Assembly (NCBI GenBank): GCA_028710695.1 | Contig: JAQTTP010000003.1 | Span: forward strand, 60,001-92,000 | Direction of reading: 5' to 3' | DNA length: 32,000 nucleotides | DNA from: Candidatus Iainarchaeum sp. | GTDB taxonomy: Archaea > Iainarchaeota > Iainarchaeia > Iainarchaeales > 0-14-0-20-30-16 | Shown: positions 158-26,422 of the stretch, piece by piece | Layout: each line of letters opens with the position of its first letter | How positions within the stretch are numbered: the stretch's first letter is position 1 | Translations under genes and position numbers: made by a program | The notes under the pieces: model-generated | What the model was told of the DNA's origin: nothing | Seen by the model: the letters and a program-made list of their open reading frames with translations, nothing else | Database searches by the model: none

Positions 158-3100
158 ATGGGTCTGAGAGAATTTTACTATAAAATGGAAGAAAAATATT
201 ACGCGTTTTTGGACAGCTTAGACAAAAAAGGAATACCTGTGTATTCTGTTGTTGATCCAATTGATAAAGTTGTTCCATCCTTTGTTTTGTTTTTAGTTCT
301 TTTTGGAATAATTATAATCGCAATAATTTATGCTTTAATTGTTGCATTTGGATTGCCAATGACAAACCAAGTTACAGTAACATTTTCTGATAAGATGGGC
401 ACCCCAATCCCTAATGCTTTAGTAAGCTTTTCTTTGGCAGACTCAAATGAAGAAATGACAACTGATGCTTTTGGAACTATTAAGTTCGAAGCAGAACCAG
501 GAAAAGAAATAATGTTCTCTCTAAAATACAATGATAAGACCTATGTGAAATCAGTAAAAATTGAAGACGATGTATTACAATACAAAGTAAGTATTGACCA
601 ATTGAATTTAAGCAAACAAAAATTATCTTTCTCTCTTTATACAACAGATAATACTCCTTTACAAGCAGTAGATATCTACTTTTCATGTTCTAATTCAAGT
701 GCAGAAGCACCAGACAATATGATGGGCTATAGCACAAATGATGTTGACGTTGACGTAGATGGAGATTGTGGGTACCTAATGGTAAGCACAGCATCAGAAT
801 TCTATAAGCCAACAGATGATACTCAGATAGACAACGGTGAAGCAATATATTTAGATCCTGTACAATCATCAGGAGACTCTGCAATTGTTGTAAATGTAAC
901 TGACACAACAGGTGCAATAGTTACTGATTTTGAAGCAACACTATCTATTGGAATTTATGATGGTTATTATTCTTCAGGATATAGTAATGAAACAAGCCAA
1001 GTTCAATTCGCAAATCTTGCTGCAGGATTATATAAAATAACTGTAAGCAAATCTGGATACACAAATGCAGTTGGCTCTGTAACTCTTGAAGAAACAGATG
1101 TTAAAACATTGAACTTGCAGATGACAAAGCTAGAAGGCGGAACTCAGGTAAGCATAAAGGTAATGAACTTAGCATCAAAAGCTTTGCAAGGTGCAGAAGT
1201 TTGTTTTTATGATATTAATGGTGAAAGTTATACAAAAATTGGTTGTGCAACTACAAACGAAAGTGGGTTGGCAACTTATACTTTAGAAAAAGATAAATCA
1301 CACAAATTTACAGTAACAAAAGAAGGATACTCATCAATAGTTTATACTGATCTTGCTGCAAATTCAGACACAATTGAAGTGAAATTGTCATCAGTAGATC
1401 CAAGCAAGTATAGATTGATGAAAGTAAAAGTAATTGACTCAGAAGGAAAGCCTGTTGAGAATGCAAAAGTAAATGTTTATGATGACAAAGGAAATATAGC
1501 GCCTTATGAGCCTGGAACAACAGACTTAAATGGAATGGCTTATCTGTCTTTTATTGAAGATGGAAAATACAAATTATTTGCATACAAGTTGAATTATTCT
1601 GGATTCTCAGATTTAGCAGACTTTGATAATCAAGATAATTTAGCAACAATTGATTACACAGTTTCAATGTATATTCCAAAAGGAATAATTGCAGTTTCAG
1701 TAGTTGACTCTTATGGAAGCAATGTTCCGAATGCAGTTGTAAAATTCTTTGATGCTTCTTGGAATGAAATTACTGCTTTGGGTGGAAAACACACAGATGG
1801 TTATGGCCAATTGGGTGTTGAATATAGGGCAGACAAAAAATTATTTTTTGTAGTTCAAAAAGAAAGTTATGAAAATTATATTTCAAAATCAGAATATATA
1901 ATTCCAGACACAACAACTGAAAAGAAAGTTGTAATGGAAAAGAAAAAATTAAAGCCTGAACCAAAAGTAGAATTTGTAAATTTAACAACAGAAGATGGAA
2001 CTGATGTTTCTATTTTGGGTGCGGGAAATAAATATATTGCTAAATTTAAAATCACTTTGCCAGAAAAAGAGCAACCATTTGAAACAATGAGCGCATACTT
2101 TGTATCTGGAGATAAAGATATAGTTGAAAAAGATGGTTGGCATATAGAAAAAGTTGTGTATAGTGGATTAGGTACTTTGAGTAAAGGAAGAAGCTATACA
2201 GGAAATTATGATAATGATATAAAAGGGATAAACCAAGTTGGAAATGAAATTGAACAAGGAATGCCATTTGAAGATTCATTTAAATGGATTGGAATAAATT
2301 GGGATCTAGAAAAAATGGATTTAATTTCAGGAATATTCTTTGTTGATGTTTACTTGAAAGTAAAAGATACAACAAAGATTGGTGAAAACCTTCCAATAAA
2401 CTTTAAGTTGTCAACAGAAAATAAAGATGAAAAATTCACAGATCCTTTGAACGAAGTTCCAGAATTCCCAGACGCAAGCAAAACAAAACTGTATAACGAA
2501 AGTAAGAATAAATTCTTTACAGTTGGAACTGCTCAACAGACTTGTGACGAATTATTTTGTTTTGAAATAAACGTTGAAGACAATGACGAAGCAATAATCC
2601 AAGATATGGTTCCTGATACTCCCTATGTTTCAGAGTTAGGAAAGAACTATACTTTGAGATTTAAATTAATAAATAACAACATAAAACCAGTAACAAATTA
2701 TAGGGTAATAATAAAGAACGAGCAAGAAAATACTTTCTTTACAACTTCAAATATAAAAGGAGTTTCAGGAAATATAAGTCCTGTTTTGAACTCAGAAGTT
2801 GCAAAGCAAGAAAACAATTACCAGATTGTTTATAACGAAGATGTATATCAAGAATTGCAAAAGAATGATCTTGTAATTGGAGAGATAAATTTCGAGCCAA
2901 GAAAGATTGGAAGCGGAAGTTTGAAGTTTATTGTAATACAAGATAAACAAGAATATTATTCAAAAGAATTCTTGATAAATGTAAATGCTTACAAAGAAAT
3001 GACTGTAACTTTGGCTCCAGAAGTATTGCCGTCTTATATCCCTTTGAAAGTTGATTTATTAGCAAAGGATAAAGAAACAGGCGAATTAGTAACTGGTGCA

Positions 3101-6100
3101 AAAATATATGTGAAAGATAATTCAGGATTGGTTCTATTTATGGGGGCTACTGACGCAGAAGGAAAAGCAGTAATTGATTTGCCATCTCAAAAACCAAATG
3201 TTTTATTGAAATTATTAGTGTACAAGCCAAAGTATAAATCATTTGAATTTGAATACAAAACAAGTTCAGAATTTATAACTTTGAGCAAAGAAAAAATTGA
3301 TATGAAAATAGATGCGAAATTAGGATTTGCAAAAGAGAGTTTGTTCTTGACAAACACAAGTGAAGTTCCTGTAAAGATTGAAGATATCTTCTTGCAAGGA
3401 AATTTTGCAGAAAAATTGTCATTAGCTCAAATAAATAAATACTTTGAAGTATCACATAAAGGAAAAATGGTTGATAAATCTTTGAAGTATGATTTAGCAA
3501 TAAACCTTGCTTTGACAGAGTTAGGTCAGAACATAACTACAAATGAAGAGTATGATTCAATATTAGTAATTAAATTAAGTGCAATGGGCGGAAAATGGGA
3601 AATGAAAGTTCCAATGCACTTGCTTCTATCTGTTGGTGGAAGTGTTGATGACAGAACTTGTTTGGCTGCAGATTTAATTAATATGAAATTAGTTTCAACT
3701 GAAAATAAACAAGACAAGCAAACACTAACAATAACAAATGGCTGTACAATAAACGGAAAGCCAGTTTCATTGAATAATTTAGAAGCAAAATTAGAATGGA
3801 AAACAAATGCTTTGGGATCAATACAAATGACCAAAGAAGAATATTCAAATAATGTAATGCAAGCTTACTTTACAAGTTTGATTAACAAGTTGACTCCTAG
3901 TAGCGAGAATACTTTTGTAGTGAATATAGAACCAAAATCAAAAGTTTCTGGAAAAGGAGAAGCAATATTACATTTAAGAGCTTTGAACAATACTGAAAGT
4001 GGAGTTGAATATATAATATTAGATATTCCATTGGAAGTTGATGTTGTGAATTATGGTGAATGTATCCAGTTTGAGTTGCCAAATGCAGAAACAGATGTTG
4101 TTGCAACTTTAAGAGATGCAGACACAAGCTTTAAGGTAACAAACACATGTGCTGAAAAAATAGAAGTAACATTTAGCTTGAAGCCAGAGGATACTGTGCA
4201 GATAAGCCCAGACAAGATTTGGGTTAAAGCTAATGAAACAAAAGAAATTAAAGTAAAGCCGACAAATTCAGCAATTGGTGTTTATACTGTTGATGTATTT
4301 GGAAGAACTGAAGGCCACACAAATGAAGGAATAAGAGTAGGAATAAATGCTTTGAGGGTTCTATTGCAACCTTTGACAACAGATTGTTTCTACTTAGAGA
4401 ACTATGAGTTTGATATGGCAAGGAATCCAGAAGAAACAAAGTGGACAACTTTAGTAAATAAATGTGTAAACAAGCAAGCAGTTGTTCAATATGATTTGAA
4501 AATAGAAGTAGATGTTGATGGCTGGGATTATGTTTTAGGTATATTAGGTGGTGCAGCCGGTGGAGCAGTAGGTAATAAACTTGGCGGCATGATCGGTGAG
4601 CTTGGTGGTGGATTACTTGGCGGTTTAGGCGCAGGTAACTTCGGAATGGTAATGCTTGAAACTAAAGATGATTGTGAATTGGAATGTCTCTATAACTATT
4701 CTGGTGAAGAATATACTACCTGTGTGAATGTTTGTGCAAGTATGGGTCTTCCTGAAACAGAAGCCCCAAGTGGTACAACAGGTACTGGAAGTGGTGCTGG
4801 TGCAAGTGGAATTGGTGGAGATGTAAGTGGTACTCCTCCTGCAAATGGTACGGGTACAGGAACAGGTACTGGAGATAAACCGGCGGCAGATAAAAAGAAG
4901 TTTGACAAAGGAAGTTTTAAAGAGGCAATTACTGGTGGACTTGGTTCTGCAGCAGGATCTGCTGGAGTAAGTTACCTAATTGGAAGTCTAACTGGATTAG
5001 ATCCTGAGACAAAGAAAGATACTACTAAATGGTCTGCGATTTTAGGTGGTGTTGGTGGTCTTGCGGGCAGCTGGATTGGAGGCCCAATGGGTATGGTTCT
5101 GGGTGGTTTAGGTGGTGCAGTAGGTAACATTATTGGATTAGCATCTAATGATGGAGACACTATAGAAACAATAACAAGAACAATCCCAACAATGGTTGAA
5201 GATTATATGACTATGAACGATGTTCTCCTGACTGAGGCGGCACAAAAGAGCATGCTGGGTGGAAATATGGCTGCTTTAAAAGCAAAATCAATTGCAGATA
5301 AAGCAGGAACTGTGGCAGCAGAAATAATTAATGCTACGTCAGCTCTCTCTGGAAACGTAGTTTTTGAATCAGGTGGAACAATAGAAATAGAACTATCTAA
5401 AAAAATTGAAAGAACATTTAATAATCAAAATAAACTTGTAAAAGGAATTGGAGAGCAAGCAATTGAAATGTATCCAGTTGGATTTACAAAATCAAAAACA
5501 GGAATGGACAATAAAGTTGAAAGCTTGACTTTGTTATTGAATTATAATAGAAAGAATCTGAAGAGCTTAGTTGCAAGTCAGGATTATAGTACATCCGGAT
5601 GGACAACACAGCCTAACCAGTATATGTCACAGATGGGCGGGTATGGTCAGTCAGGCCAATATGGAATGCAGAATGGCGGATACAATGGCTATGGTTATGG
5701 TTCAAGTATGGGCTATGGCGGTTATGGAACTGGAATGGGTTATAGCGGAATGGACTCATACGGAATGCCATCTGCGTTTAGTACTATAGGACTACAAGCG
5801 GACTCAGATACAATATCCTATGAGGATGCTCAAGAAGACCAGAAAGTAGAAGAAATGGATAGAGAAAAAGTTGAAACATCTCTAGAGCCAGGAAATGTTG
5901 AAATAATAAATGAATATTCTCCGATAAGCATGTTATTTACTGATGTTGCTGATCAGCAAAAGAAATATAACTTGCCAATAGAGAATTGTTTCTTGGCAAA
6001 TGGCAAATCTGGAGCAACAGGTCCAGAAGCAAAACCAAAAGTTGCATTTACTTGGAGATGGAATGATGTTGTAGATTACCAAGTAGGCTCTGGTGGATAT

Positions 6101-7969
6101 ATGTGTAGTGACGGAAACATATATTGTGATGCTACACAGTTTACAATAGAAGTAATAAACAGATTAAAAATTGCAAATGGTTTATTGAAATCATTTAGTC
6201 CAGATTGTGAATATAGCCAAGCAATTTATAATGACACATTTGATGTTACTGATCAATATGTTGGTGTAAGTAGTGTTGTTGTTGAAAGACTTGGGAATTC
6301 ATCAAGTAACTACAATTTAGTTGTGAAAGTACAGAATAATTCCTTGAATAAGCTTTCAGGAAATTATATTGTAAAGGTAGTAGATACACAGCAAACAAAA
6401 GACCTTTACACATTTAATGGACAATTTGATTTGAGCAAGAAATCTAATGCTTCAGATGATGAATTGGTAATAACAAATGAAGTTGAATTGTACTATAGCA
6501 CATTCAAAGTTGAAGTTCAATTTAACTCTGTAAAGAACGAAGATACTACAGAAAAATTGCCATACAATTATGTAATACCTTATAATGGCGAGCAATTTGC
6601 TTATGACTCAACAGCACTAATGGGCTTAGAAAAAAGCACAGATAAAATAATAGAGTGGGGCAATTGTGCTAAGAAAGAAGGCGCAGCAACAACAATTTGG
6701 AATAAGTTGAACTTTGAAGCTTACCTAATGAAGGATGGATTTACAGATGACTTCTTGGCAGACTTCAAAGAATATGCTGTTAACCAGAAATTCTTAGATG
6801 CTCCTGGAGATGCAAAGAAAATAATAAACAACTTGCTTCCAAACAACCTAAAGTTCTTGCCAAAAGAATCTGCTTTGAATGCTATGGGCTATTCATTGCC
6901 GCAAGCAGGATTGTATAAAGTAGAAATTGTTGTGAAATATGGCGATACTCATATGGGCTGGGATGTATTTGACAGCGATGGAAAAATAATTGAAGATGTA
7001 AACTCCATTGCAGTTTATTTAGAGCCAGTAAAGTTTAGTGATAATCCACTATACTATTTGCCATTGGATGCAACTGTTGGTGTTGAGAATTATGAACTTA
7101 AGAGAATTGGATATGGTCTTGACTTTGGCGGAGACACTTTATGGTTCAACAAAGAAAGTGAAGATAATCCAACTTTGATACCAACATTGGTTTCTAAGTC
7201 TAATCCACAAGTTCATGTTGAAACTGTTTCAAAGCAAGATATGGAAACTCTGAACACTTATAAAGGATTAGTTCTAAAGGTTGTTCCAACAGGAACAGTT
7301 GGAGACACAGTAGAAAGAACAATATATTATTATCCATCAGTTCCAGCACCAGTAGCAATGTATATTAGTAAAGAATCAGATGGCCCAGCATATGGATCTT
7401 ATTTGATTTCAAGAGCAAACAAGGGACCTGTAAACTCAGGAAACTCCTTGATGAACTGGTATGGATTCTGTAACAAAGGAACTGAGATGTATGCTCCAGA
7501 AACAGATACAGAAAAGAAATATGCTTGTAAAGGATTCTCTGGCGAAGATATAATTGATCTTCAAGGATATCCTGATAAAGCAGGAACAAAGATAGACATA
7601 CCTTTGGGAGAATTTAAAGCAAATGCTTATGGAATGTTCTTTGATGAGGATAGCTTGTTGAGAACTCCAGAAACAAGCAAGGTATTCTTCAGAGGAATTA
7701 TTTACCTAACACCGAACGAAACATCAACTTTCAAGAAGATAACTGCAAGTGATGAAATGAAGATATTATATCCTGAAGGAGCAAGCGATGAATTCACACT
7801 TGAGCCTTTGAATAAGGATGTATCTACAGTTCAAAGCATTTACGACTTGGTTGGAGATGGGTATATGTGTGTAACTAATCCACAAGGCGGTGCAGGAGTA
7901 GAATTCTGGTGGAACCCTAAGGCTGTATTTGATACCTTGGAGTCCGGAGACGCGGAAGGTAGTAGTTAA
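158..7969 (+). CDS. Giant (2603 aa) membrane-anchored surface protein, paralog 1: conserved N-terminal module + TM helix, prealbumin/CarboxypepD_reg-like beta-sandwich repeats, central glycine-zipper region, G/Y-rich low-complexity tract, conserved C-terminal module
   Basis: This is a single uninterrupted ORF. The N-terminus MGLREFYYKMEEKYYAFLDSLD...IDKVVPSFVLFLVLFGIIIIAIIYALIVAFG aligns with the two other giant ORFs. It has repeated units of the type KVKVIDSEGKPVENAKVNVYDDKGN...TTDLNGMAYLSF..GKYKLFAYKLNYSG (e.g. nt 1418-1605), typical of carboxypeptidase-regulatory-like/prealbumin folds. Many N-x-S/T sequons are visible. GxxxG arrays lie at 4538-4657 and 5030-5146. Confidence 0.9.
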   Translation: MGLREFYYKMEEKYYAFLDSLDKKGIPVYSVVDPIDKVVPSFVLFLVLFGIIIIAIIYALIVAFGLPMTNQVTVTFSDKMGTPIPNALVSFSLADSNEEMTTDAFGTIKFEAEPGKEIMFSLKYNDKTYVKSVKIEDDVLQYKVSIDQLNLSKQKLSFSLYTTDNTPLQAVDIYFSCSNSSAEAPDNMMGYSTNDVDVDVDGDCGYLMVSTASEFYKPTDDTQIDNGEAIYLDPVQSSGDSAIVVNVTDTTGAIVTDFEATLSIGIYDGYYSSGYSNETSQVQFANLAAGLYKITVSKSGYTNAVGSVTLEETDVKTLNLQMTKLEGGTQVSIKVMNLASKALQGAEVCFYDINGESYTKIGCATTNESGLATYTLEKDKSHKFTVTKEGYSSIVYTDLAANSDTIEVKLSSVDPSKYRLMKVKVIDSEGKPVENAKVNVYDDKGNIAPYEPGTTDLNGMAYLSFIEDGKYKLFAYKLNYSGFSDLADFDNQDNLATIDYTVSMYIPKGIIAVSVVDSYGSNVPNAVVKFFDASWNEITALGGKHTDGYGQLGVEYRADKKLFFVVQKESYENYISKSEYIIPDTTTEKKVVMEKKKLKPEPKVEFVNLTTEDGTDVSILGAGNKYIAKFKITLPEKEQPFETMSAYFVSGDKDIVEKDGWHIEKVVYSGLGTLSKGRSYTGNYDNDIKGINQVGNEIEQGMPFEDSFKWIGINWDLEKMDLISGIFFVDVYLKVKDTTKIGENLPINFKLSTENKDEKFTDPLNEVPEFPDASKTKLYNESKNKFFTVGTAQQTCDELFCFEINVEDNDEAIIQDMVPDTPYVSELGKNYTLRFKLINNNIKPVTNYRVIIKNEQENTFFTTSNIKGVSGNISPVLNSEVAKQENNYQIVYNEDVYQELQKNDLVIGEINFEPRKIGSGSLKFIVIQDKQEYYSKEFLINVNAYKEMTVTLAPEVLPSYIPLKVDLLAKDKETGELVTGAKIYVKDNSGLVLFMGATDAEGKAVIDLPSQKPNVLLKLLVYKPKYKSFEFEYKTSSEFITLSKEKIDMKIDAKLGFAKESLFLTNTSEVPVKIEDIFLQGNFAEKLSLAQINKYFEVSHKGKMVDKSLKYDLAINLALTELGQNITTNEEYDSILVIKLSAMGGKWEMKVPMHLLLSVGGSVDDRTCLAADLINMKLVSTENKQDKQTLTITNGCTINGKPVSLNNLEAKLEWKTNALGSIQMTKEEYSNNVMQAYFTSLINKLTPSSENTFVVNIEPKSKVSGKGEAILHLRALNNTESGVEYIILDIPLEVDVVNYGECIQFELPNAETDVVATLRDADTSFKVTNTCAEKIEVTFSLKPEDTVQISPDKIWVKANETKEIKVKPTNSAIGVYTVDVFGRTEGHTNEGIRVGINALRVLLQPLTTDCFYLENYEFDMARNPEETKWTTLVNKCVNKQAVVQYDLKIEVDVDGWDYVLGILGGAAGGAVGNKLGGMIGELGGGLLGGLGAGNFGMVMLETKDDCELECLYNYSGEEYTTCVNVCASMGLPETEAPSGTTGTGSGAGASGIGGDVSGTPPANGTGTGTGTGDKPAADKKKFDKGSFKEAITGGLGSAAGSAGVSYLIGSLTGLDPETKKDTTKWSAILGGVGGLAGSWIGGPMGMVLGGLGGAVGNIIGLASNDGDTIETITRTIPTMVEDYMTMNDVLLTEAAQKSMLGGNMAALKAKSIADKAGTVAAEIINATSALSGNVVFESGGTIEIELSKKIERTFNNQNKLVKGIGEQAIEMYPVGFTKSKTGMDNKVESLTLLLNYNRKNLKSLVASQDYSTSGWTTQPNQYMSQMGGYGQSGQYGMQNGGYNGYGYGSSMGYGGYGTGMGYSGMDSYGMPSAFSTIGLQADSDTISYEDAQEDQKVEEMDREKVETSLEPGNVEIINEYSPISMLFTDVADQQKKYNLPIENCFLANGKSGATGPEAKPKVAFTWRWNDVVDYQVGSGGYMCSDGNIYCDATQFTIEVINRLKIANGLLKSFSPDCEYSQAIYNDTFDVTDQYVGVSSVVVERLGNSSSNYNLVVKVQNNSLNKLSGNYIVKVVDTQQTKDLYTFNGQFDLSKKSNASDDELVITNEVELYYSTFKVEVQFNSVKNEDTTEKLPYNYVIPYNGEQFAYDSTALMGLEKSTDKIIEWGNCAKKEGAATTIWNKLNFEAYLMKDGFTDDFLADFKEYAVNQKFLDAPGDAKKIINNLLPNNLKFLPKESALNAMGYSLPQAGLYKVEIVVKYGDTHMGWDVFDSDGKIIEDVNSIAVYLEPVKFSDNPLYYLPLDATVGVENYELKRIGYGLDFGGDTLWFNKESEDNPTLIPTLVSKSNPQVHVETVSKQDMETLNTYKGLVLKVVPTGTVGDTVERTIYYYPSVPAPVAMYISKESDGPAYGSYLISRANKGPVNSGNSLMNWYGFCNKGTEMYAPETDTEKKYACKGFSGEDIIDLQGYPDKAGTKIDIPLGEFKANAYGMFFDEDSLLRTPETSKVFFRGIIYLTPNETSTFKKITASDEMKILYPEGASDEFTLEPLNKDVSTVQSIYDLVGDGYMCVTNPQGGAGVEFWWNPKAVFDTLESGDAEGSS

Positions 7970-8082: not shown

Positions 8083-8712
8083 ATGCAAACCACATTAGAA
8101 GATTTTTTTGAGATTGCATCCAAGCCTACTTGGAGATCACTTCTTCTGGATATTATTAAAAAAAATCAAATAGATCTTTGGAAAATTGATGTTTCTTTGA
8201 TTGCTGAAAAATATCTTAAAGAAATAGAATTCTTAAAAGTAAGTAATTTTGAAATACCTTTGAATGGGGTTTTGATTTGTTCTATTTTGCTAAAATATAA
8301 AGCAAATAGGCTTGTTTCTTTCTTTGAGCTTGCAAAAGAGATTGAGGAAGAACTTAAAGCAGAAGAAAAACTGGAAAACTTTGAGGAAATCTCTCAAGAA
8401 GAAACTAAGCTTGATAGTTTTGTAGAATCTTTAAAAGGTCTGACAGGCCCTGAAAAGAAAAAGTATCCTAAAAAGATACATTATGTGGAGTTAAAAAGGC
8501 CACAAAAAGACTTCAAAACGATCTTGCAATACATAGAGGAAGAGGCAAGGAAAATCGAAGGAAAAACAACGTTTTTTGACTTTAAGCAGAGATTCTCAGA
8601 TACAAGTCCTGCAGAAGTGTTTTACTCTTTGTTGTTTATACATAAAGAAGAGAAAATCGCCCTTGTACAGAACGATCAATATGGGGATTTTACTATAAAA
8701 GCAGGTAAATAG
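8083..8712 (+). CDS. scpA: Segregation and condensation protein A (ScpA, kleisin of SMC complex)
   Basis: The N-terminal WRSLLLDIIKKNQIDLWKIDVSLIAEKYLKEI matches the ScpA signature (LDLLLhLIkkneiDIydIpia.it.qYL). The C-terminal FYSLLFIHKEEKIALVQNDQYGDFTI matches the ScpA winged-helix end. A strong SD aggtgat sits 5 nt upstream of the ATG. Confidence 0.8.
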   Translation: MQTTLEDFFEIASKPTWRSLLLDIIKKNQIDLWKIDVSLIAEKYLKEIEFLKVSNFEIPLNGVLICSILLKYKANRLVSFFELAKEIEEELKAEEKLENFEEISQEETKLDSFVESLKGLTGPEKKKYPKKIHYVELKRPQKDFKTILQYIEEEARKIEGKTTFFDFKQRFSDTSPAEVFYSLLFIHKEEKIALVQNDQYGDFTIKAGK

Positions 8713-9219: not shown

Positions 9220-9945
9220 CTAAAGAATTTGTTCTATAATTGAACCCATTCTTTTGATTAACTCTTCTTTTATTTTCTGAGTGGTGGGATAATTATTTAT
9301 TATTTCTTCAAGTAGAGCTAGAATCCGTTTTTCTCCAAAATATTCATAATGATTGTATAAAATGCACATATAATCTTCTCTAAATGCTCTAAATATGTTT
9401 GCTGGGTCAGACCAATCAATCTGTTTTCTTTTTGCAAGAGAAAAATCAATAAAATAAACTTTTCCATCTTTGTATGTTGCATTCTGGAAATGCGGGTGTC
9501 CATGTTCTACGCCCAAAGCATGCATTTTTCCTAATTCTCTAAAAAAAGCAGGGAATATGTGTGGGTTAGATGGGTCTTCTAAGACACTTTGTGTAATACT
9601 TTTGCCCATATCCATAAAGGCCATAGGGTGGTGCCCATTTTCTGGAACCTCAAATCTAAAAGGCTCTTCAACATTTACCCCAGAATTATGTAAATATTTA
9701 ACAATATCAAGCTCGTGTTTTGAAACATTTCGAAGGTAAACTTTTTTTCCGCTTTTTGTTATAGCAACACGAGTACATTTTGCAAGTAGTTTCATATGCC
9801 GATCTCTTAATTCTGGGTTACCGTGTCTAACTGCTAGCATTGCTGATGCTTTTATAGCTGTATCTGTGGAATAAATAGATATTTCTTTTGGTTCTAGTCT
9901 TGTTACTTCTGGCCTTTCATAGGGCCGTTTTATTGGCTTTCTCAT
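9220..9945 (-). CDS. Protein-kinase-like fold protein (RIO/Bud32/Kdo-LPS kinase-like), atypical catalytic motif
   Basis: LGKMHALGVEHGHPHFQN resembles the kinase catalytic loop (lH..gi.HGDl...N). DGKVYFIDFSLAK resembles the DFG-region strand. ELDIVKYLHNSGVNVEEP resembles the alpha-C/hinge region of RIO/Kdo kinases. No glycine-rich loop was recognised. Assignment is by motif memory only. Confidence 0.45.
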   Translation of the reverse strand: MRKPIKRPYERPEVTRLEPKEISIYSTDTAIKASAMLAVRHGNPELRDRHMKLLAKCTRVAITKSGKKVYLRNVSKHELDIVKYLHNSGVNVEEPFRFEVPENGHHPMAFMDMGKSITQSVLEDPSNPHIFPAFFRELGKMHALGVEHGHPHFQNATYKDGKVYFIDFSLAKRKQIDWSDPANIFRAFREDYMCILYNHYEYFGEKRILALLEEIINNYPTTQKIKEELIKRMGSIIEQIL

Positions 9946-10107: not shown

Positions 10108-13100
10108 ATGGGCTTAAGGGACTTTTATTTTGGTTTAGAAGATAAATACTATAAAATGATCGATAAACTTGATACTATTTTTCCTGCACATGCGATTGTG
10201 GATAGAATAGATAAAGTAATGCCTTCAATGATCCTGTTCTTTATTTTATTTGTAGTTATAATTGTTCTAATAATTTGGGCTGTAATTCCGTCCTATGCTC
10301 AAATAAATGTTTCTTTCTTTAATGATGGCTTGAGTTTGAAGGAAAAAATCCCTTTTAGTATGTATATTGGGGATGAAAACTACTCCTTTGTTTCTGACGG
10401 AGGGTCAGCAATAGTAAAAATACCAAAAAGTGATCTGTATAGAATAAAAGTTGATACTTCTAAGTATTCAATAGACAAAGATTACTCTTTTAGTGATGAA
10501 ATAAAAGTTTTATTAGATAAAAAGAAAAAAAATATTCCAATACAAATTTATTTTAAATCTGGATATTCTGATGTAGAATCCGCAAGCGCAATATTTGATT
10601 GTGATAATATTTCAATACCGGATTCTGAAGCAAGTAAAGAAACAAATAATGGATATATTGAGATAACTGTGCCAGAAGATTGTGGAATTTTGAATATTTC
10701 TGCAAGTGCAGAAGGTTATAATTCTAAGAATGATGTTTGTGATTCAACTTCTTGTGTAATTAATTTTGAAAGTGCTACAAGCGTTAGTGATAATGGAAAA
10801 ACAAATATTCCGACTGCAAATATAGTTGTAAAAATTGCAGATAATTTGGGCTCAAAAGATGGACAGGTAACTATTTATGATTCTTCTGATTTGATAAACC
10901 CTGTTGAAACAGGATATTCTTTAAACGGGTATTATAACTCTAAAGCTTTGGCTGTTGGGGGCTATAAAGTTGCTGTTAATGTTGGAACTTATTTGCCACA
11001 AACAAAAACAATAGTTTTGACTGAAGCAGGAATGAATGTTGATTTCATGGTTATGAAAAACACATTAGGAAATGTATTATTAAAAGTTGATGAAGAAACA
11101 GAATTTTCATATAAGTTGAAAGATTTAAATAATAATATATTGGATTCTGGAAATAGTGACAAAGAAGTTGCATTCCTTCCTGTATTTGAGTACGGAAAAT
11201 ACCTGATTGATTTGACTCCAGATAGTAATGAATTTGGAGTAATCTCAAATGAGCAAGTTGAATTTAAAGAAGGCACTTCAGAAATTACCTTGGATTTGAA
11301 AGAGATAACTTCTTTTAACGCTGTTTTAGTTAAATTGCATGTAATTGATGAATCAGAATCTCCAATACAAGGCGCAAAAGCATTTGTGCAAGATTTGTTT
11401 AGCGGATTTGAAGTGTTTAGTTATAACTTCCCAGAAACTGATGAAAATGGAGACACTCAACTTCCCATTACTGAAGAAGGGGCTTACTCTTTTAGAGTTT
11501 ACAAAGGTTATTCAGAAGGAATGAGCGAGCAAGTAACAATTACTTTTGAGCCAGGAACTGAAATGCCAGAAGAAGAGTTGGATGTTGTAATTTATTTGGG
11601 AAATGGAAGTTTTAATATAACTGTTTTGGATGAATTAGATTATGTTGTGCCATTTGCACAAATTGATTTTTATACAAAAGGACTGACAAAAAAATCAGGA
11701 ACAAAATTAACTGATAATGCTGGAAAATTATTATTTTCATTAAAAGCAGGAACAGAAAAATTCTTTGTGGCATCTAAAGAAGGCTATATGCCATTCTATA
11801 GTGAAGCAAGGTTTTTAACTCCTGCAAATATTTGGGATATAAATGCAAATTTAGAACCACAAAAACTAAAAGAGGATGATGAAAAAGCAAGAGTTGAATA
11901 CTTGGGTGTATTTGATGCTCTTGGCGGAGAACCAACTAATTTCGAAGTTGATAAAGCAGTATATTTGGGTTATGATATCCACCTTTACACTGATGTGGAT
12001 GAAATGAACTTCGAATATACTACTGGAAAAGAAACAACAACTGTAGAACAAGATTCTTTATTTATTTTTGATAGTAGTTCTTCATCACAAGTGGATTCAA
12101 TGTATGAAGATCTGGAAAAAACAATTTACACTGAGGATAAAGGAAAAATATTAACTGCAAAATGGACTACTGGATTGGATTCTGCAAAAGTGGAAAAAGG
12201 AATTTATAGGATCTATGTGAAAGTAATGGTTAGAAATGATAGCTCAGTATCTTTGTACGAACCATTGAATATAAAATGGAAATTATATTTGGATGAAAAG
12301 TTAAATTCAAGCGAAGAAAAAGAATATTTCTTAGGAAGTAGTTTGGATTGTAGTGATATGTTTTGTGCAAAAACATCTTTATTGGACATTGAAAACCAAA
12401 TCTATGTTGAAAATATTGGAAATGTAAATAAAAATGAACAAAAATATCCTTTAGTAATTGGAAAGAAGTATAAAACTGAATTCACCTTAATGAACGGAAT
12501 AACTGCAAGCGATGGAGAAATTGAAAATGGATACTTGAAAGCACACACAGCAACAAGTTCAGATACAAGTTTCATGGCTGTTGAAAATGATGTTGATAAA
12601 TATAATTTCTATCAATTTTCAAATATATCTTTGAGTGGACCAAACAGCGAGAGCCAATATTATGGCGCCGCAAAAACAATTTTAGTAGATAAATATAATT
12701 TCACAAAATTCTTTGCAAATAAAACAATTTCTGGAAGCTTTAATTTAATTCCAACTTATGATAATGGGAATTACATTAACTTTTGGGTTATAGATTCTGA
12801 TAAACAAGTTCCAGTAAGGGGGGCTCCAGCATTTAATTATTGGTTTGTGCCTGATGCACCACACTCTCTGAGCATAAAACTATTCCCTAATACTTTGTTA
12901 GTGCCAAATAAAGTTCAGAATTTGAAAGTGTATGTTTATGATGAACTTGAAAGTGTTGTAAAAGACGCAAAAGTAGTTGTATTAAAGAAAGCACCTAATG
13001 ACTCAGTATACAAAACTGTGCAAGGTTGTAATAACTTAACAACTGATTATGAGGGCAAAGTAGTTTGTGAACTTCCGCCTTTTGAACCTAATACCTTTAT

Positions 13101-16100
13101 ACAAGTGTTGGCTTACAAAGAAGGATACAAGAGCTACAAGCATAATGATTTATTGCCTGATTTGAAAGTTGTGGAAGAAATAATTTCTTTTAATCCTGCG
13201 AAATTGGATATTACAATTTCATATCCTAAAGAAAAAGCAGTGGTTGCAGATTTGACAATTGCAAATGCAAGTGCACAGGATTTAATAATAAACAATATTG
13301 ATTTGCAATTTGATAAATATTCTGAAAATTCTAAATTCCTTTTGAACTGGGAAGCAATGGAAGCTTACTTTGAGTCAGAATATAAAGGAAAAGTTATTTA
13401 TGGAATTGAAGAAGATAAAGGAGTAAATGAAACAATTTTGCAAAACTTCTTTAAGGTAATAGCAAATGACACTTTTGATAAGAGTGTATATGCTGATAAA
13501 ATTGGCGGAATAATAAAAGTAACTTTGGATACAAGTCCAGGAACTGTAACTTTGGATATTCCTTTTTCAATAAAATTCAAATTAGATTCTTATCCTGAAA
13601 ATGCAGGAGAGTGTTTGAAGATTTCAATGCTAGAAAAAGATTTCTATATTGAAAAAGCAACAAACACAGAAATCGAAATGATAAATACTTGTTTGTTAGA
13701 TTCTGAAAAATTAACTCCTGCAATATTTGATAAATTATTTTTGTTGCTAACTTTAGAAGATGGAAGTTATAGTATTGTGAATTATAGTTTAACAATACCT
13801 GACAAAGTTTCAAAGAATGTTGATATCGGAGTTCCTGCTTTACTTCTTGAAAATCTGAAAACAGATGTAACAAAACCAGATATGACTGGGTTCTTGGGAA
13901 TGACTCCTAAGTCAGTAAAAGGAAACCAAAAAATTGGAATTAAATTAATGGGTTATGTGACAACGGAATCTGGCCCAGCAAAACTTGAATCTAATACAAT
14001 ATCAATTAATGTAAATACTGTTGAGTTAGCAAATTGTATTGGGGTTTACAATGACAACGGCGAAAAAATAGACAGAATAGATTTTGGTGTGTTTAGTAGT
14101 ATAGAATATTTGGCGACAGCAGAATCAATAAATAATAAAGTTCATGGTCCATCAACAGAAATAGAAATAAAGAACGAATGTTCTGGATCTTTGTTGTATA
14201 TAAGAGCATGTAAAGATAATGAAAATAATTTTAGTCCGGGTTGTGGAAATGAAAACAGCGATGCAAAACTTTCATTCTCTGTTGAAGACTTCACAAAAGG
14301 AATTGAATTGGCTGGTGGCGCAAGCCAAAAAGTAGAGATTTATAGGCCATCAATACCTGGTGCATATGCTTTAGATCTGTGGGTAAAAACAAAAGACCAA
14401 TGGGGCTATAAAAAGATTTATGATGTTAAAACAAATGTAAAAACAACAACCGCATTTGGATACTTTAGTTATAATCCATTCTTGCCTATGTTTGATCTGA
14501 ATACTGATATTACTCCTATGACAAATGGAGACGAATTTGAGTCAGATATAATGTACCTGTTCAATAGAGATTTATGGGTTTCAAAGATGAGTGATTTAGA
14601 GACTCTAGAAAAAATAGCAGAATGTGATACTGGCGGCTCTGGATGTTGGAATTCTTTAGATAGATTAGATCTGAGCTCTGGACTTGGTGACGATGGAGAT
14701 AGTGTAGACAATTCAGAAACTGCGAGAAAAGCAGTATTCTATAGTGGAGTGGGAGTTGCAGGTGTTGGAGTTATTATTTTGATTGGTGTTGCTCTGTGTG
14801 CATCTTCTGTGCCAGTAGCCGGTTGGATTATTGGTGGTGCCGCGGCCATTGCTGCAGGGACATTTGCAATAATTTCTGCATTGGCTCCGGATGACTTTGA
14901 ACAAATAACAGAATATCACTTGTTTGATATGGTTGGGGAAGATATTGCTCTTGATGCTGTGATTTATAGTCAAACTGATAAGAAAACTTATAATTGGCTG
15001 GATGGTACTTCAATGGATCCCGTAAAGTTGACGAGCTTGTTTGGAGAGCGGTATTATGATCTGTATTATGTTAATAAAGAAGTTGCTGGGTCTGTAGGAT
15101 TTGCAGGCGGAGACCACAAGAAAGATTTGTGGTTTACTGTGTATTGTGGAACTGAATATGAGCCAGTTGTAGATGCAATTGTAATAAACGACATAAAAAA
15201 AGAAGTTTGTGGCTGGCCTGAAGATGAACCTTTTGTTGTGAATGGTTCTGATGTTGAATTTAGACCAGATTGTTCTGATGCAGGATTCTTGGACGGATTT
15301 GAACTACATTCACATGTTTATGTTCCTTGTGTTCTAAAACCAAAGAACTGGGTATATGAACAATTCAAAGGTGTAGATTATGGTTTGCCAAATACTGGTT
15401 TGGCAAGAGTAAAATATACTACAAAAGATTTGAAGCCAGGATATAATTACTTTGATGTTGATATGAATGTTATTGGGCTTTTGGATATAGATCCAAAAGA
15501 AGTAAAGTTTAGAGTTTCTTTGTACAACCCTTTATCTGAAGAAGAAAAAATTCTTCCTCTTGGAGACTCTTGTAAGAATCTAAGTGGAGAGATTATTGGT
15601 TATACTGGTGAAAAAGCAAGGCCAAAACTAAAGTTTGTATGGGATTGGCAATCACAGGGGTCTGTTTTGAGCCCATATGAAGATATGAACTTTTGTAATA
15701 CAGATAACTATTGTGACTCAACTCAATTCATGATGAATATGTTCAATAGAATAAATACATTTAATGATGAAATTTTGGATTTGAGTAAGAGCAATGATAT
15801 GGATTTGCCGAAAACAAATCCTCAACCAGAAACACTTAAACCAGAGTATGACTACGATCCTGCAAAAGCAGAATCTCTTGGAGTTAAGTCTGTAAAACTA
15901 GAATTTACTAATTCAAACCTTTTGTATTTGAAAGTATCAAAAGATGTTGATGTAAATGTAAGTAAAATAAGTGTAATAGTTGGTGGGGCAGATGGGTCTT
16001 CTGGAGATATGGCTGTATCTTCTCAAAATCCAAATGTGTTTACTTATACCATATCTGATCAACCAGTTGAAGAATACAAAGATTTAGATGGAAAGAAGTA

Positions 16101-17346: not shown

Positions 17347-17497
17347 TAAAAAAGTAAGTAGGTAAAGAACAGCATTAGTTAGGTTAAAAAAATGCTAAAA
17401 AAAGGTCAACGGTTAGTACAGAAAGGAGACAAAAAACACCTCTTAAGATGGTGTACAAAATTTGGCTCCTATAAGAATTATAATTATTGGTGATTGT

Positions 17498-20400
17498 ATG
17501 AGTTTTAGAGAGCTATATACGAAAATAGAAGATAAATATTATGCGATGTTGGATAAGATAAATCAAGTTATACCTATCCACAAGCTTACTGACCAAATTG
17601 ACAAGGTAATGCCCTCGATGATATTCTTTTCTGTATTCTTTTTAGTGATAATTGGACTTATTATTTGGCTAATAGTTGCTAGTGTTGGATCTTCAACAAT
17701 CACTTTTGAATTTTATTCTAATGGAACACTTGCATCCGGAGAATTTAATGTAACTTTCTCTTCCGAAGGTGGAGAACAAATTGCTCTTGTGAAGAATGGA
17801 ATTGCCTTTGGAAATTATGATATGGGGGATTTTGTAACTGTGAAAATAAAAGAGCCTTATACTTTTTCAAAAACTTATGAAATTAAAAGCGAATTAATGA
17901 AAATTGACTTGCCAGGATTAGACAAACTTGCTTTGAAGGAAGCAGAAAAAAAGAATAAAGAAATTTCTATTTATTTGTATGATGGCACATCTGGGTCTCT
18001 AGTTAAAGAAAAAGCGATTGTTAGCGCAAGTTGTGAGGATTTTAGTAAAGAAATAGAAGTAACTGGAAACACAAAACTTGCAATTCCTGATAATTGTTCT
18101 TATGTTGATTTGTTAGCAACTGCTGACGGATATTTACAATCTAAAAAAAGTTGTGATACCGCTTTGTGTAAAATATTTATGGACAAAAAAGGAACAACTA
18201 CTCCAACAACTGTTGTTCAATCAATTCCAAAAAATAAAGTTGTTGTGTATGTAAAAGATAATAAAGGAACTTCTCTGGAAGGGTTTGATGTAAAAATTAC
18301 TGGGGTTGAATCAATACAAGATGTTTTGAACCAAGCAAAAACAAATGCTTTTGGAAGTTACACTTTTGAAGATATTACTGTTGGAAATTATAAATTGTAT
18401 GTGTCTGATCCTTCTGGAACTTTGACTACTGTAAGCAAAGATTTAATTGTTGTATCTGGGCCTCCAGTTATTGCAGATATTACTATGGAAAAGCCGCCTT
18501 TGGGATATTTTAATGTAAAAGTGAATACTGAGAATACAGGTGGATTTGCATTAGCTACTTTGTATGTGAAAGATGTAAATGATAATTATCTTGGAACTGT
18601 GGACATAAATACTGGTGTAGAATACAAGATAGGTGTTTATGAAAAAGGAAAATATATTTTTAATGTAATTCCTGTAACTGGTTATGATGAAAATTATTCA
18701 ATTGTTACTGAAGAAAGAGAATACGATTTGCAAAGCGGAGATAAAAAAGTTGATTTAGTTTTGAAAGAATTAAAATATTATGAAAATACAAAAGTTAATT
18801 TGAAAGTTGTAAAAGAAAAAGATGATGGGTCTGAGGAACCATTGCCAAATATGAAAATAATAGTTGAAAATGACGAAGGCTGGCAAATAGAATTGCCTGC
18901 TGACAAAACAAAAACAGATGTAAATGGTTCTGTGAGTTTTATTTTGCCATCTGGAGTTTACATAGTTCATGCTTATAATTATTATTTTACTGGAGAAACA
19001 AATTTACAATTATTGGACACTCCTGGTGCAACAGAATTGCCTGAAACAGATGCAAAGATTGCTGTTCAGATTGGAAAAGCAAAAATAAAAGTTTCTGTTA
19101 AAGACGAAGATGGAAAGGATTTGACAGATGTGAAAGTAGATATCTATATGGATTCCAATTTTTTTGGACCAATGTTTATAAGTCAAGAAAAATACAAAGA
19201 GGTTCAGGTTGAGGCATATCATAGTTATTATGTAAAGGTAACAAAAGAAGGATATTTGAATTATTATAGTCCAGAGTTGGTTTTGAAGAAAGACCAATTA
19301 ATGGATGAGAAAGTAATTTTGTATAATAAATTAGAACACTTAAACTCAGATCCTGAAATGATTTATGTTGGGGCATATAAAGATCAAGAATTAAAAACAA
19401 AGCTTGATAAAATAGATCAAGAGAATGAGTTTTATTATGTGTTTGATTTAGTTGTTCCAGAATTTAGTGAAAAATTGTATGAAATTTCTGGGGTTAAAGT
19501 AACTGGTGTTGCAGGAAACAAAAATTTGCCAGTTTTAGAAAGCGATTTAGTTTTAAAGAACGTATTTGCGTCTGGAAAAACACATTTATTTAGTACAATA
19601 ACTGGAACTTCTTTAGCAGAACAAGGTGAAGATTTTACTTATACTGCAAAATCTTTTACAAGCGAGTTTAATGGGGGCTCTTATGTTGCAAGAATGGTTG
19701 TGCATTTGAGATCTACTGATATTCCTCAAATAGGGGATAAATTATTCTTTTATTATAAATTAGATATAGATACTAAACAAAATGGCTCTTTTAATTTGCC
19801 AATACCAACTGACGCAGAATATTATGAATTAATTAAGTTCTTGGGAAAACGAGAACTTTGTGAAAATGAAGTTGTTTGTGTTGATACTTACTTAGATGGA
19901 ATGGCAACAAGTAGTTTGCCTGGCGGAAGCGAAAATAAAGTGGAATTATATTCTGGAAAGCAGAATAATATTCTTGTAAATCTTACAAAGGGTGATGAAC
20001 TTCCAACTGAACTTGAAGCAAGTAAGTTTACAGTATTCAATTCTACAATTTCTTCTGTAGAGAACTTTAATTCTTTGAAAGACTTCTATGTTGATTTGGA
20101 AGATATGAGTTTAGTGCACGACAAAATAACATCTACAAAGCCAATAGAAATTGACTCACAAACAGCACCGGTATTTGTAAAAGAAGCATCAATAAATAAT
20201 TATAAAATTAATACTACTTTGAAGTTTGATTCAAAAATTGAATTGGTGGAACCAGAGAATTCAAAACTTTATTTTAATTTTGATACTACTAATGAAGTTG
20301 AGCAAGTATATGTTGATTTAGAAACAATGAACGATGACGAACCATTAAAGTTAGAAGGGCTGCCAGAAGGAGATCTTTTGATTCCTGGAATTGAAAACTC

Positions 20401-24907: not shown

Positions 24908-25327
24908 ATGGATATAACAATGTTGATAGGGCTAGGAGAGTTCTTTGGGGACTTTGTCTTCATAATAAAGATCTTTGCCTTTATTGCCATTCTTGGGTTT
25001 GTTAACAGATATATCCAGAGCAAGTTAATAAAAATAATAATGGTCGTGTTTATGGGTTATTTTATCCTTATTGCAAACTGGGCTGTATTTGGAACTATGT
25101 TTGTGATATATACTTTATTGGGAATTGGTGTTGCAGGAATACTAACAGATTTCTTCTTTGCTGGTCAGAATATTATTGGTGAAGGTGAACAAGAAAGGCA
25201 GATGGCCCAAGAAAAAGAGCGGGAAGAAATGGAGAGAAGAAGAATGCTTGAGGATGCACGGCCAGTATCTAGTAGTGCGAGTTTGCATAAAAGGCCCCCA
25301 ATTCCACCTGCACTTATGAGAAGGTAG
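24908..25327 (+). CDS. Small polytopic membrane protein (about 3 TM) with charged E/R/K-rich and Pro-rich C-terminal tail
   Basis: The ORF lies 33 nt after the giant gene 3 stop with no T-run between. An SD ggtg lies at 24897-24900. Hydrophobic segments are FVFIIKIFAFIAILGFV, IIMVVFMGYFILIANWAVF and MFVIYTLLGIGVAGIL. The tail is EGEQERQMAQEKEREEMERRRMLED...KRPPIPPALMRR. Confidence 0.7.
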   Translation: MDITMLIGLGEFFGDFVFIIKIFAFIAILGFVNRYIQSKLIKIIMVVFMGYFILIANWAVFGTMFVIYTLLGIGVAGILTDFFFAGQNIIGEGEQERQMAQEKEREEMERRRMLEDARPVSSSASLHKRPPIPPALMRR

Positions 25328-25331
25328 AACT

Positions 25332-25691: not shown

Positions 25692-25725
25692 CTATAAAAA
25701 CAAAATTGTGTTATATAGTGATAAT

Positions 25726-25971: not shown

Positions 25972-25976
25972 TCTGA

Positions 25977-26315: not shown

Positions 26316-26422
26316 ATTCCTGAAGGAATTGTGAAGGAAAACCCCCCAAAAAGACCAAGAAACCTTTATAAAGCTATGTTATATTGATTATATATATTAT
26401 ATATAGAGCGATGTGAAGTATC

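Follow-up and report, generated by a model that had tools for sequence, protein, structure and literature searches.

Glycine zippers, described as (G,A,S)xxxGxxxG patterns in hydrophobic, helical and membrane-embedded segments (Kim et al. 2005, as cited in PMC12955049), have been characterised mainly in small bacterial lipoproteins and toxins. In SlyB, a Gly-zipper alpha-hairpin resides in the membrane and oligomerises laterally into rings (bioRxiv 10.64898/2025.12.22.696046; PMC12955049). The present analysis addresses two long Gly-rich blocks located in the middle of G1, a giant protein encoded by a 32-kb stretch of DNA (about 32% GC) from Candidatus Iainarchaeum sp. (GenBank assembly GCA_028710695.1, contig JAQTTP010000003.1, positions 60,001 to 92,000), hereafter called the window. 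Judging from its sequence, G1 is a clear member of a large, uncharacterised family of giant surface proteins that is specific to the uncultivated Iainarchaeota (Diapherotrites; DPANN archaea). We favour, at roughly even odds, a reading in which the two blocks would be the arms of a hairpin associated in cis with the membrane of the cell itself; an ectodomain-like insert would have split this hairpin, and its arms would have been reshaped into glycine zippers that serve the packing of helices. Glycine-zipper hairpins would thus be extended to the interior of giant archaeal proteins. Nevertheless, the family-level architecture and the pairing of split and compact forms in neighbouring genes are more notable than the zipper itself.

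The closest working analogue of the G1 blocks is most probably the SlyB-type Gly-zipper alpha-hairpin. Like the members of the Pfam glycine-zipper clan (SlyB, YfgH, OsmB and PCP-type bacterial outer-membrane lipoproteins), the G1 blocks appear as helix-break-helix units of about 40-45 aa with repeated GxxxG and hydrophobic spacing residues, and the zipper would lie on the extracytoplasmic side of a lipid- or transmembrane (TM)-anchored protein. However, G1 comes from an archaeon bounded by one membrane only, and its element lies inside a protein of 2600 aa, consists of two units split by an insert and is evolutionarily tied to a hairpin that is TM-grade, i.e. whose most hydrophobic window has an approximate apparent free energy of membrane insertion (dGapp) of 2.5 or less. 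Furthermore, in contrast to SlyB/PCP lipoproteins, G1 is an archaeal protein of 2603 aa that carries a signal-anchor TM segment and no lipobox. Convergence may account for the resemblance, as the profiles of the clan are short and of low complexity.

Repeated GxxxG in hydrophobic helices is also shared with Gly-zipper toxins (CdzC/CdzD of the Caulobacter type I secretion system, Tse4 and Tde1 of type VI systems, TelE and LXG-T2 of type VII systems, N-terminal channel helices of VacA), which insert into and permeabilise the target membrane (PMC12955049). These toxins are small, or are C-terminal domains, and depend on dedicated secretion systems and paired immunity genes, whereas the G1 element is internal and TM-grade in paralogs; the window shows no secretion-system, immunity or toxin context, and no LXG or type VI marker was found in Pfam and NCBIfam scans of the giants. 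The ClyA-family beta-tongue, influenza HA2 and HIV gp41 resemble G1 in carrying a Gly/Ala-rich, moderately hydrophobic helix-turn-helix on a large ectodomain, the influenza fusion peptide being a tight Gly-ridge helical hairpin (PMC4908596, PMC8634857). G1, in contrast, has no significant homology to them, no detected trimeric coiled-coil or heptad apparatus and no evident cleavage site. Finally, the SPEARE proteins of Nanohaloarchaeota are very large, membrane-anchored and mostly extracytoplasmic DPANN giants with adhesion-type domains, for which a role in cell-cell interaction has been proposed (PMC6642349). The G1 family is alike in size, anchoring and mostly extracytoplasmic location, but SPEARE proteins have a single TM segment near one end, a cytoplasmic restriction-endonuclease part, serine-protease and laminin-G domains, and no mid-protein hairpin. 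Serine protease, laminin-G and type III restriction endonuclease are absent from the Pfam/NCBIfam matches of G1 and its two paralogs in the window, G2 and G3, and no sequence relationship to SPEARE proteins was seen.

The central part of G1 comprises the following features (window coordinates; KD, Kyte-Doolittle hydropathy):

4532-5167, + strand: central element, aa 1459-1670, bounded by the hidden Markov models (HMMs) of two flanking conserved regions
4529-4657, + strand: block 1 or putative arm 1, YVLGILGGAAGGAVGNKLGGMIGELGGGLLGGLGAGNFGMVML, a (GGxx)n zipper whose longest Gly chain is 7; KD 1.0-1.3, approximate dGapp +4.5 to +8
4667-4735, + strand: twin CX3C module, aa 1504-1526, within an acidic stretch
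4748-4924, + strand: T/G/S/P-rich linker including GTGTGTGTG, with the K-rich end DKKKFDKGSFKE
4925-4999, + strand: third small-xxx-small segment, weakly hydrophobic, AITGGLGSAAGSAGVSYLIGSLTGL; approximate dGapp +5.2
5030-5146, + strand: block 2 or putative arm 2, WSAILGGVGGLAGSWIGGP-MGMVLGGLGGAVGNIIGLAS, a Gly chain of 6 with a helix-GGP-helix layout; KD up to 1.57
5201-5218, + strand: DYMTMN, counterpart of the family post-hairpin motif L.DY[VI]INL, 19 aa after block 2

All the peptides quoted in the original prediction are present in G1, and the chains of 7 and 6 Gly at i,i+4 positions that it reported are confirmed as the longest ones (from G1464 and G1633, with 10 and 8 GxxxG pairs, respectively). 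The coordinates that it gave for block 2 (aa 1625-1663) are exact. For block 1, its end at 4657 includes MVML beyond the zipper proper (GILGG...GNFG, aa 1461-1496, nt 4538-4645), and it placed the GTGTGTGTG repeat one base off; this repeat corresponds to aa 1564-1572 (nt 4847-4873), encoded by ggt acg ggt aca gga aca ggt act gga. The four Cys located between the blocks are arranged as C1506-x3-C1510, 11 residues, then C1522-x3-C1526 (nt 4673-4735), in a stretch whose net charge is -6, and the third small-xxx-small segment proper covers aa 1591-1614 (nt 4928-4999).

The Gly register exceeds what composition produces. Shuffles within the blocks, in which their 36-47% Gly is kept, reach chain lengths of 7 and 6 with p = 0.020 and 0.017, and a chain of at least 6 did not arise in any of 500 whole-protein shuffles. 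Gly pairs are enriched at lag 4 (p = 0.043 for block 1 and 0.009 for block 2) and at lag 8 (p = 0.001 and 0.024) and depleted at lags 2 and 6. The periodicity vector of Gly has its maximum (0.55 and 0.48) between 90 and 100 degrees per residue and almost vanishes from 160 to 180 degrees. The Gly pattern is therefore helical and not beta, and an alternation of the beta or amyloid type was rejected for this reason and because of the depletion at lags 2 and 6. The pattern of Kim et al. is found many times in G1, with a helical period and hydrophobic spacing residues: the non-Gly residues are hydrophobic at 81% in block 1 and 80% in block 2, against 25% in the adjacent T/G/S/P linker. Thus, the zipper-type pattern and the membrane-like composition of the blocks are both borne out, whereas their embedding in a membrane is putative at approximate dGapp values of +3.8 to +8. 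Each block is 39-43 aa long and is interrupted near its middle, by GNK in block 1 and by GGP in block 2; this size and layout are those of a Gly-zipper two-helix unit and not of one TM span. A search with TRF found no DNA repeat that accounts for the blocks, only a 21-nt repeat in two copies in the linker and a 9-nt repeat in two copies at 5045-5063, and a recent microsatellite-type expansion was therefore rejected as the source of the 4-residue register.

The family to which G1 belongs was defined here by the profile of a C-terminal module of about 670 aa. An exhaustive search with this profile, in place of a word-indexed search that returned only 5 fragments, retrieved 834 cluster representatives at 50% identity, of which 535 have E<=1e-30; the majority of the matches are 2300-2700 aa long and carry the module at their C-terminus. 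These more than 800 clusters are annotated in databases only as 'carboxypeptidase regulatory-like domain' or hypothetical, and literature searches for the family or for giant proteins in Diapherotrites returned nothing specific. A scan of species-representative genomes with a 57-aa sub-alignment of the module gave 63 loci, nearly all of them labelled Candidatus Iainarchaeum or unclassified archaeon, including Ca. Iainarchaeum andersonii SCGC AAA011-E11 and the complete genome of archaeon GW2011_AR10. A few loci are labelled Chloroflexi, Falkowbacteria or Thaumarchaeota, all from one study, and could be binning errors. A listing of cluster members added a single name, a Candidatus Diapherotrites archaeon. 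G1 displays all the features of the family: an EDKYY/DPIDKVVPSF N-terminal motif followed by a 24-30-aa TM segment, a CarboxypepD_reg/Big_1 lobe, a central element and the C-terminal module. The family order would read: cytoplasmic N-terminal motif, signal-anchor TM segment, beta-sandwich lobe of about 1400 aa, putative hairpin, linker of about 250 aa and C-terminal module of about 670 aa.

Across 118 full-length members, the zone upstream of the C-terminal module is distinctly hydrophobic. Its most hydrophobic window has a median approximate dGapp of +3.9 and is TM-grade in 41 members, whereas the stalk, used as an internal control, has a median of +8.6 and is never TM-grade (0/118; Wilcoxon p = 3e-19 for the difference); for comparison, the median for the N-terminal anchor is -4.7. 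Measured from the C-terminal module, the most hydrophobic central window is located a median of 181 aa upstream (interquartile range 160-330), and that of G1, in block 2, 286 aa upstream. Its approximate dGapp (+3.8) equals the family median.

The length of the central element is bimodal among the 77 members in which both flanks were located, 31 of them having at most 80 aa and 37 at least 170 aa. The compact form, which is found in about 40% of the members, is a helix-turn-helix of about 50-70 aa with few or no charges in the helices, a Gly/Ala-rich arm 1 and a strongly hydrophobic arm 2. The split form, to which G1 belongs, places an insert of about 100-900 aa between two weaker arms rich in Gly, Ala and Met. 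When forms of up to 100 aa are taken as compact (34 members) and the others as split (43 members), the median dGapp is 0.2 for the compact form and 7.0 and 5.8 for the two split arms (Mann-Whitney p = 0.0017). The two other giants of the window carry a counterpart of the element, which in G2 is at the homologous position:

14728-14892, + strand: compact hairpin of G2, TM-grade, aa 1541-1595; KD 2.53, approximate dGapp -0.5
22421-22477, + strand: degenerate weak central segment of G3, aa 1654-1672, 19 aa

G1 keeps the flanks of the element, with ...DGWD directly ahead of block 1 and DYMTMN past block 2. Therefore, block 1 corresponds in position to arm 1 and block 2 to arm 2, and the Cys module, the linker and the third segment to an insertion at the turn, so that the two blocks may be viewed as the arms of a mid-protein hydrophobic hairpin conserved in the family architecture. 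Arm motifs, namely a Gly-rich helix followed by (N/S/A)P(W/F), and xAGxxGxxxGT, recur in split homologs that share less than 25% identity. Among the 41 TM-grade members, 23 have C[D/E]W before the hairpin, 24 have (D/E)PC after it, followed by L.DY[VI]INL, and 9 have CPxC at the turn, for a CxxC background of 1.9% per 84-aa window. Examples of CPxC or flanking Cys are P0008, P0013, P0036, P0048, P0103 and P0119, as well as an open reading frame (ORF) starting at 4190 in the AR10 locus L034.

The hairpin is, as judged from sequence comparison, the conserved feature of the family, and G1 has elaborated on it, in a lineage-specific way, with its long (GGxx)n zipper, because most homologs have no long i,i+4 Gly chain. 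Indeed, the absence of this register from homologs had been considered in advance as speaking against the original prediction, and it is largely what is observed: in the central zone, 87 of the 118 members have a longest Gly chain of 2-3, 18 one of 4 and 13 one of at least 5, chains of at least 5 being found in 1 of 113 stalks. Chains of small residues (G/A/S) of at least 6 are found in 51 members. G1 ranks within the top four for GxxxG density, and the two members ranked above it owe their position to non-hydrophobic Gly linkers. Gly-zipper character is nevertheless seen again in clearly hydrophobic hairpins: P0137 combines a dGapp of 0.2 with 13 GxxxG; its WGSWGGPPGMIIGAIVGG resembles G1 block 2, and its WGSWGGPPGMIIGAIVGGIVG is similar to GSWIGGPMGMVLGGLGGAVG of G1.

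The search of Pfam Gly-zipper profiles, which had been suggested as a check, was negative for G1, whose blocks score 8-12 bits against gathering scores of 24.2 for Rick_17kDa_Anti (PF05433), 25 for Gly-zipper_Omp (PF13488), 28.9 for Gly-zipper_YMGG (PF13441) and 27 for Gly-zipper_OmpA (PF13436). Block 1 alone reaches 12.1 bits on the 43-position profile PF05433 (E = 0.19; 11.3 bits with flanks), a profile that does not match block 2, a 243-aa segment or whole G1; Gly-zipper_Omp matches segment 3 and block 2 together at 8.2 bits (E = 3.1), and neither YMGG nor OmpA matches G1. Sequence searches of the PDB with the segment and the blocks gave nothing significant. Some homologs behave differently. 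The hairpin of P0101 exceeds two cut-offs (29.8 against 28.9 bits for Gly-zipper_YMGG, 27.0 against 25 for Gly-zipper_Omp), P0057 scores 28.2 bits on YMGG, and P0137 scores 15.3 bits. Together with the TM-grade hairpin found at the same position in a third of the members, these matches make the membrane or oligomerisation role first proposed for the blocks a reasonable one and the best available guess.

The proposed mechanism can be set out as follows. Segments with the hydrophobicity of the compact hairpin are expected to be integrated by the Sec translocon, so that the compact form would be inserted in the producing cell's membrane with an out-in-out topology. As a second anchor, it would hold the boundary between the two ectodomain lobes at the cell surface. 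G1 would have had its hairpin split at the turn by an ectodomain-like insert of about 120 aa (twin CX3C, T/G/S/P linker and third small-xxx-small helix), and both arms would have been reworked into (GGxx)n glycine zippers with a hydrophobicity under the usual TM threshold. Such arms would most likely clear the translocon, be helical and remain outside, resting on the outer leaflet of the cell's own membrane or partly immersed in it, in a monotopic or re-entrant mode like that of SlyB. Their flat Gly faces would allow tight lateral packing of helices, either by self-association or by docking onto the TM hairpin of a neighbouring paralog. If so, the topology expected for these giants would change from a fibre with a single anchor to a protein pinned at two points or bridging partners. 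Testable handles on how the surface is built and on contact with other cells are offered by the Gly faces, by the Cys pair that flanks the hairpin and by the CPxC at its turn.

The composition of the inserts favours an extracytoplasmic location. Family-wide, their density of NxS/T sequons (0.83 per 100 aa) is close to that of the ectodomains (0.98-0.99) and well above that of the N-terminal cytoplasmic part (0.19), and their Cys content is 2.4%, against 0.9% in the stalk; they are net acidic (D+E exceeding K+R) and have T/P-rich linkers. The twin CX3C of G1 fits a disulfide-stapled alpha-hairpin, of which this arrangement is typical, and would therefore also argue for an extracytoplasmic insert. 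In P0005 and P0025, the inserts reach about 780-940 aa and consist of arrays of CC-x3-C modules preceded by C-x5-C, with at least 70 Cys, plus (GT)n and (TP)n linkers; they are possibly a hypervariable, perhaps disulfide-rich, display region inside the hairpin.

The organisation of the loci brings another element to the argument. Among the 33 loci of at least 15 kb, 30 carry at least two giant ORFs in tandem on one strand. In the 23 pairs that could be scored, the central element has a median dGapp of 4.6 in the first ORF, with 2 TM-grade elements, and of 2.0 in the second one, with 13. The loci range from L003 to L044, L034 being that of archaeon GW2011_AR10, and the pairing pattern includes Ca. 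Iainarchaeum andersonii (L039). Two types of hairpin, a TM-grade one and a split Gly-zipper one, are thus usually encoded as neighbours. A hetero-complex in the membrane is an attractive, if speculative, idea. In the window, G1 is of the split type, G2 is compact and TM-grade, and G3 is degenerate.

Several observations weigh against the cis-membrane hairpin. The G1 arms (dGapp +3.8 to +8, KD 1.0-1.6) are below the level of a TM-helix call, so that the case for their membrane association comes from homology and composition, and hydrophobicity was estimated as a simple 19-residue sum of the central-position values of Hessa 2005, which differs from a trained TM predictor. Block 1 includes N, K and E. 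A strict period of 4.0 over seven repeats cannot keep one face of a single straight alpha-helix, and the blocks must therefore be broken or supercoiled. G1 has neither the flanking Cys pair of the compact forms nor CPxC at the turn. The AlphaFold2 model of G1 aa 1358-1785, based on an 11-sequence alignment, is unusable (mean pLDDT, the per-residue confidence score, 39.8, with no residue at or above 70). With regard to gene pairs, the difference between first and second ORFs is modest (Wilcoxon p = 0.03); only the nature of the downstream partner is informative, because the loci were ascertained with a motif from split-type proteins, and G1 and G2 are not adjacent in the window, ScpA-like and HEPN-like genes being located between them.

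The rival that survives best, although we consider it doubtful, denies the blocks any role at the membrane. They would be Gly-rich hydrophobic spacers, degenerate remnants of a hairpin that no longer anchors G1, and would act as a flexible hinge or in packing within or between ectodomains or neighbouring giants, for example in a surface lattice. The weak hydrophobicity, the poor conservation of the Gly register in most members and the lack of a confident AlphaFold2 structure are compatible with this view, as is G3, where the element has degenerated to one weak 19-aa segment. A G/Y/M-rich run at aa 1836-1896 also shows that G1 tolerates Gly-rich expansions. However, the blocks are almost uncharged, with 80% hydrophobic non-Gly residues against 25% in the linker next to them, they follow a strictly helical period with depletion at lags 2 and 6, arm motifs recur in split homologs below 25% identity, and the DNA bears no trace of a recent repeat expansion.

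An integral topology is unlikely. In this case, blocks 1 and 2 would each span the cell's own membrane (out-in, then in-out) with the help of Gly-zipper contacts between them or with partner helices, and the Cys module, the linker and segment 3 would form a cytoplasmic loop. The blocks are positionally homologous to the arms of compact TM hairpins, with the insert at the turn position, and marginally hydrophobic helices can integrate if paired; the K-rich DKKKFDKGSFK and ETKKDTTK flank segment 3 and precede block 2, and the four Cys could bind a metal in the reducing cytoplasm. Nevertheless, approximate dGapp values of +3.8 to +8 are far from spontaneous integration, each block is about twice as long as a TM span, and the net charge of -6 directly past block 1 is contrary to the positive-inside rule. 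Moreover, the inserts resemble ectodomains in being net acidic, rich in sequons and Cys and equipped with T/P linkers, and the Cys-rich modules of P0005 and P0025 look like disulfide-rich extracellular repeats, unlike Zn sites.

Insertion in trans, close to what the original prediction had imagined, appears quite unlikely. The weakly hydrophobic arms would pass the translocon of their own cell and, on contact, enter the membrane of another one (host, prey or partner) to form a pore, a junction or a fusion site, in the manner of a viral fusion peptide, a ClyA-type hairpin or the CdzC/D, Tse4 and TelE-type Gly-zipper toxins. Split arms of sub-TM hydrophobicity (medians 5.8-7.0) are what is needed to escape integration in the cell's own membrane, the insert looks extracellular, and a Gly/Ala-rich hairpin of moderate hydrophobicity that turns at a central G-P is what membrane-inserting segments typically look like. 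The best PDB match of the P0101 hairpin is the hydrophobic beta-tongue of ClyA (residues about 169-196), although it is non-significant (E = 0.5). Secreted Gly-zipper toxins that permeabilise their targets are documented (PMC12955049), and DPANN archaea are often ectosymbionts (PMC6349945).

Against this, the homologous element of G2 and of a third of the family (approximate dGapp about -4 to +2.5) should integrate in the cell's own membrane, which would bring the end of the stalk back to the cell surface. The distance of about 1450 aa that had been proposed between the anchor and the zipper is close to the measured one, the blocks beginning about 1390 aa past the N-terminal anchor, and the long beta-sandwich stalk is supported by matches to CarboxypepD_reg, Big_1, bMG3 and MG4. 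In contrast, the zipper does not occupy the far end of this stalk: it lies between two large ectodomain lobes, with about 940 aa of folded ectodomain after the central element, and offers no free tip. Pointers to a host or target membrane were found neither in Pfam or NCBIfam, where toxin, immunity, protease and fusogen domains are absent, nor among the window neighbours; a fold search with the C-terminal module gave generic beta-sandwiches, and the G1 blocks are under all Gly-zipper Pfam thresholds. Furthermore, the same gene pair is found in Ca. Iainarchaeum andersonii, the best-studied representative of this lineage, for which a capacity for independent life has been argued (PMC6349945, PMC6642349). 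An extended version, in which split-type arms are deployable hairpins carried about 50 nm out on a beta-sandwich lobe, or freed by unfolding, that enter a neighbour's membrane and form with a TM-hairpin paralog a two-membrane bridge, pore or fusion site, is the least probable of these readings; if true, Iainarchaeota would possess an archaeal machine for cell-cell contact that is specific to them and had been unknown so far.

The favoured cis-membrane hairpin is embedded in an architecture common to the three paralogous giants of the window, encoded in tandem on the + strand. Such tandem genes of about 7 kb, three here, mean that about 70% of the 32 kb is devoted to lineage-specific giants. 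The corresponding features are:

158-7969, + strand: G1, frame +2, 2603 aa
10108-17346, + strand: G2, 2412 aa
17462-24874, + strand: G3, 2470 aa
158-268, + strand: N-terminal motif of G1, MGLxxxYxxxEDKYYxxLDx...PVYxxxDPIDK, aa 1-37, presumably cytoplasmic, common to G1, G2 and G3
269-364, + strand: N-terminal signal-anchor TM segment of G1, aa 38-69; KD 3.29, approximate dGapp -6.0
365-4528, + strand: N-terminal ectodomain lobe ('stalk') of G1, with beta-sandwich Pfam hits, ending in ...VDVDGWD; pre-hairpin flank HMM, 87 bits
5942-7966, + strand: family-defining C-terminal module of G1, about 670 aa, G.TG..A.P....W.W ... YCDxTQF ... FYYLPFDG ... FWWNPK

G1 is identical to a protein of a metagenome-assembled genome annotated at NCBI as 'carboxypeptidase-like regulatory domain-containing protein [Candidatus ainarchaeum sp.]'. 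The stalk matches to Pfam lie between aa 69 and 1050. The C-terminal module profile aligns over its full length with G1 aa 1929-2603, and G1, G2 and G3 align with 12 homologs over this module. Its AlphaFold2 model has a pLDDT of 62 and a predicted TM-score (pTM) of 0.58, and Foldseek retrieved from the PDB only generic beta-sandwiches, with query TM-scores of about 0.1.

The N-terminal motif (about 37-40 aa, ...DPIDKVVPSF) is seen at 158-364, 10108-10300 and 17498-17700 of the window, ahead of an unusually long hydrophobic segment of 24-32 aa; of the 118 members, 58 have an EDKYY-like sequence and 52 have DxIDKVxPS. The motif, which has no match in Pfam or NCBIfam, may be a cytoplasmic docking or sorting signal for the giants. 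The anchor has an approximate dGapp of -6 to -7.6 in G1-G3. A cleavable signal peptide was rejected in its place, as the uncharged run has a median of 27 aa in the family and follows a conserved N-region of about 40 aa. For G3, the listed TTG start adds 12 residues (LAPIRIIIIGDC, nt 17462-17497) upstream of an ATG at 17498; this ATG is the likelier start, because the product then begins with MSFRELYTKIEDKYY, which matches the N-terminal motif of the family.

G1 also carries, between the putative hairpin and the C-terminal module, a second Gly-rich low-complexity run (aa 1836-1896, nt 5663-5845), rich in G/Y/M/S (…GYNGYGYGSSMGYGGYGTGMGYSGMDSYGMPS…), with a Gly i,i+4 chain of 5 and only 26% of hydrophobic non-Gly residues. 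This run is missing from G2.

The window neighbours encode a ScpA-like kleisin, a HEPN-like protein, UDG, GNAT, RpiA, a Mre11-like phosphoesterase and small membrane proteins; as the kleisin, UDG, GNAT, RpiA and phosphoesterase neighbours are housekeeping genes, a phage or mobile-element origin was rejected. The NCBIfam scan of the giants themselves returned only sub-threshold noise. Two genes located between G1 and G2 break a giant-gene array that is contiguous in other genomes: a short ScpA/kleisin-like gene (8083-8712, + strand), with ScpA N-terminal and Rad21/Rec8-like C-terminal matches, and, on the opposite strand, a weak HEPN_MAE_28990-like ORF (9220-9945, - strand). Directly downstream of G3 and on the same strand, five small multi-TM ORFs (139, 119, 87, 112 and 114 aa; 24908-26767, + strand), four of which were scanned and gave no Pfam match, could encode membrane partners of the giants. 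The product of one of them (25977-26315) has the C-terminal end GGMGDQYGDLLKGLGGGGGGGM.

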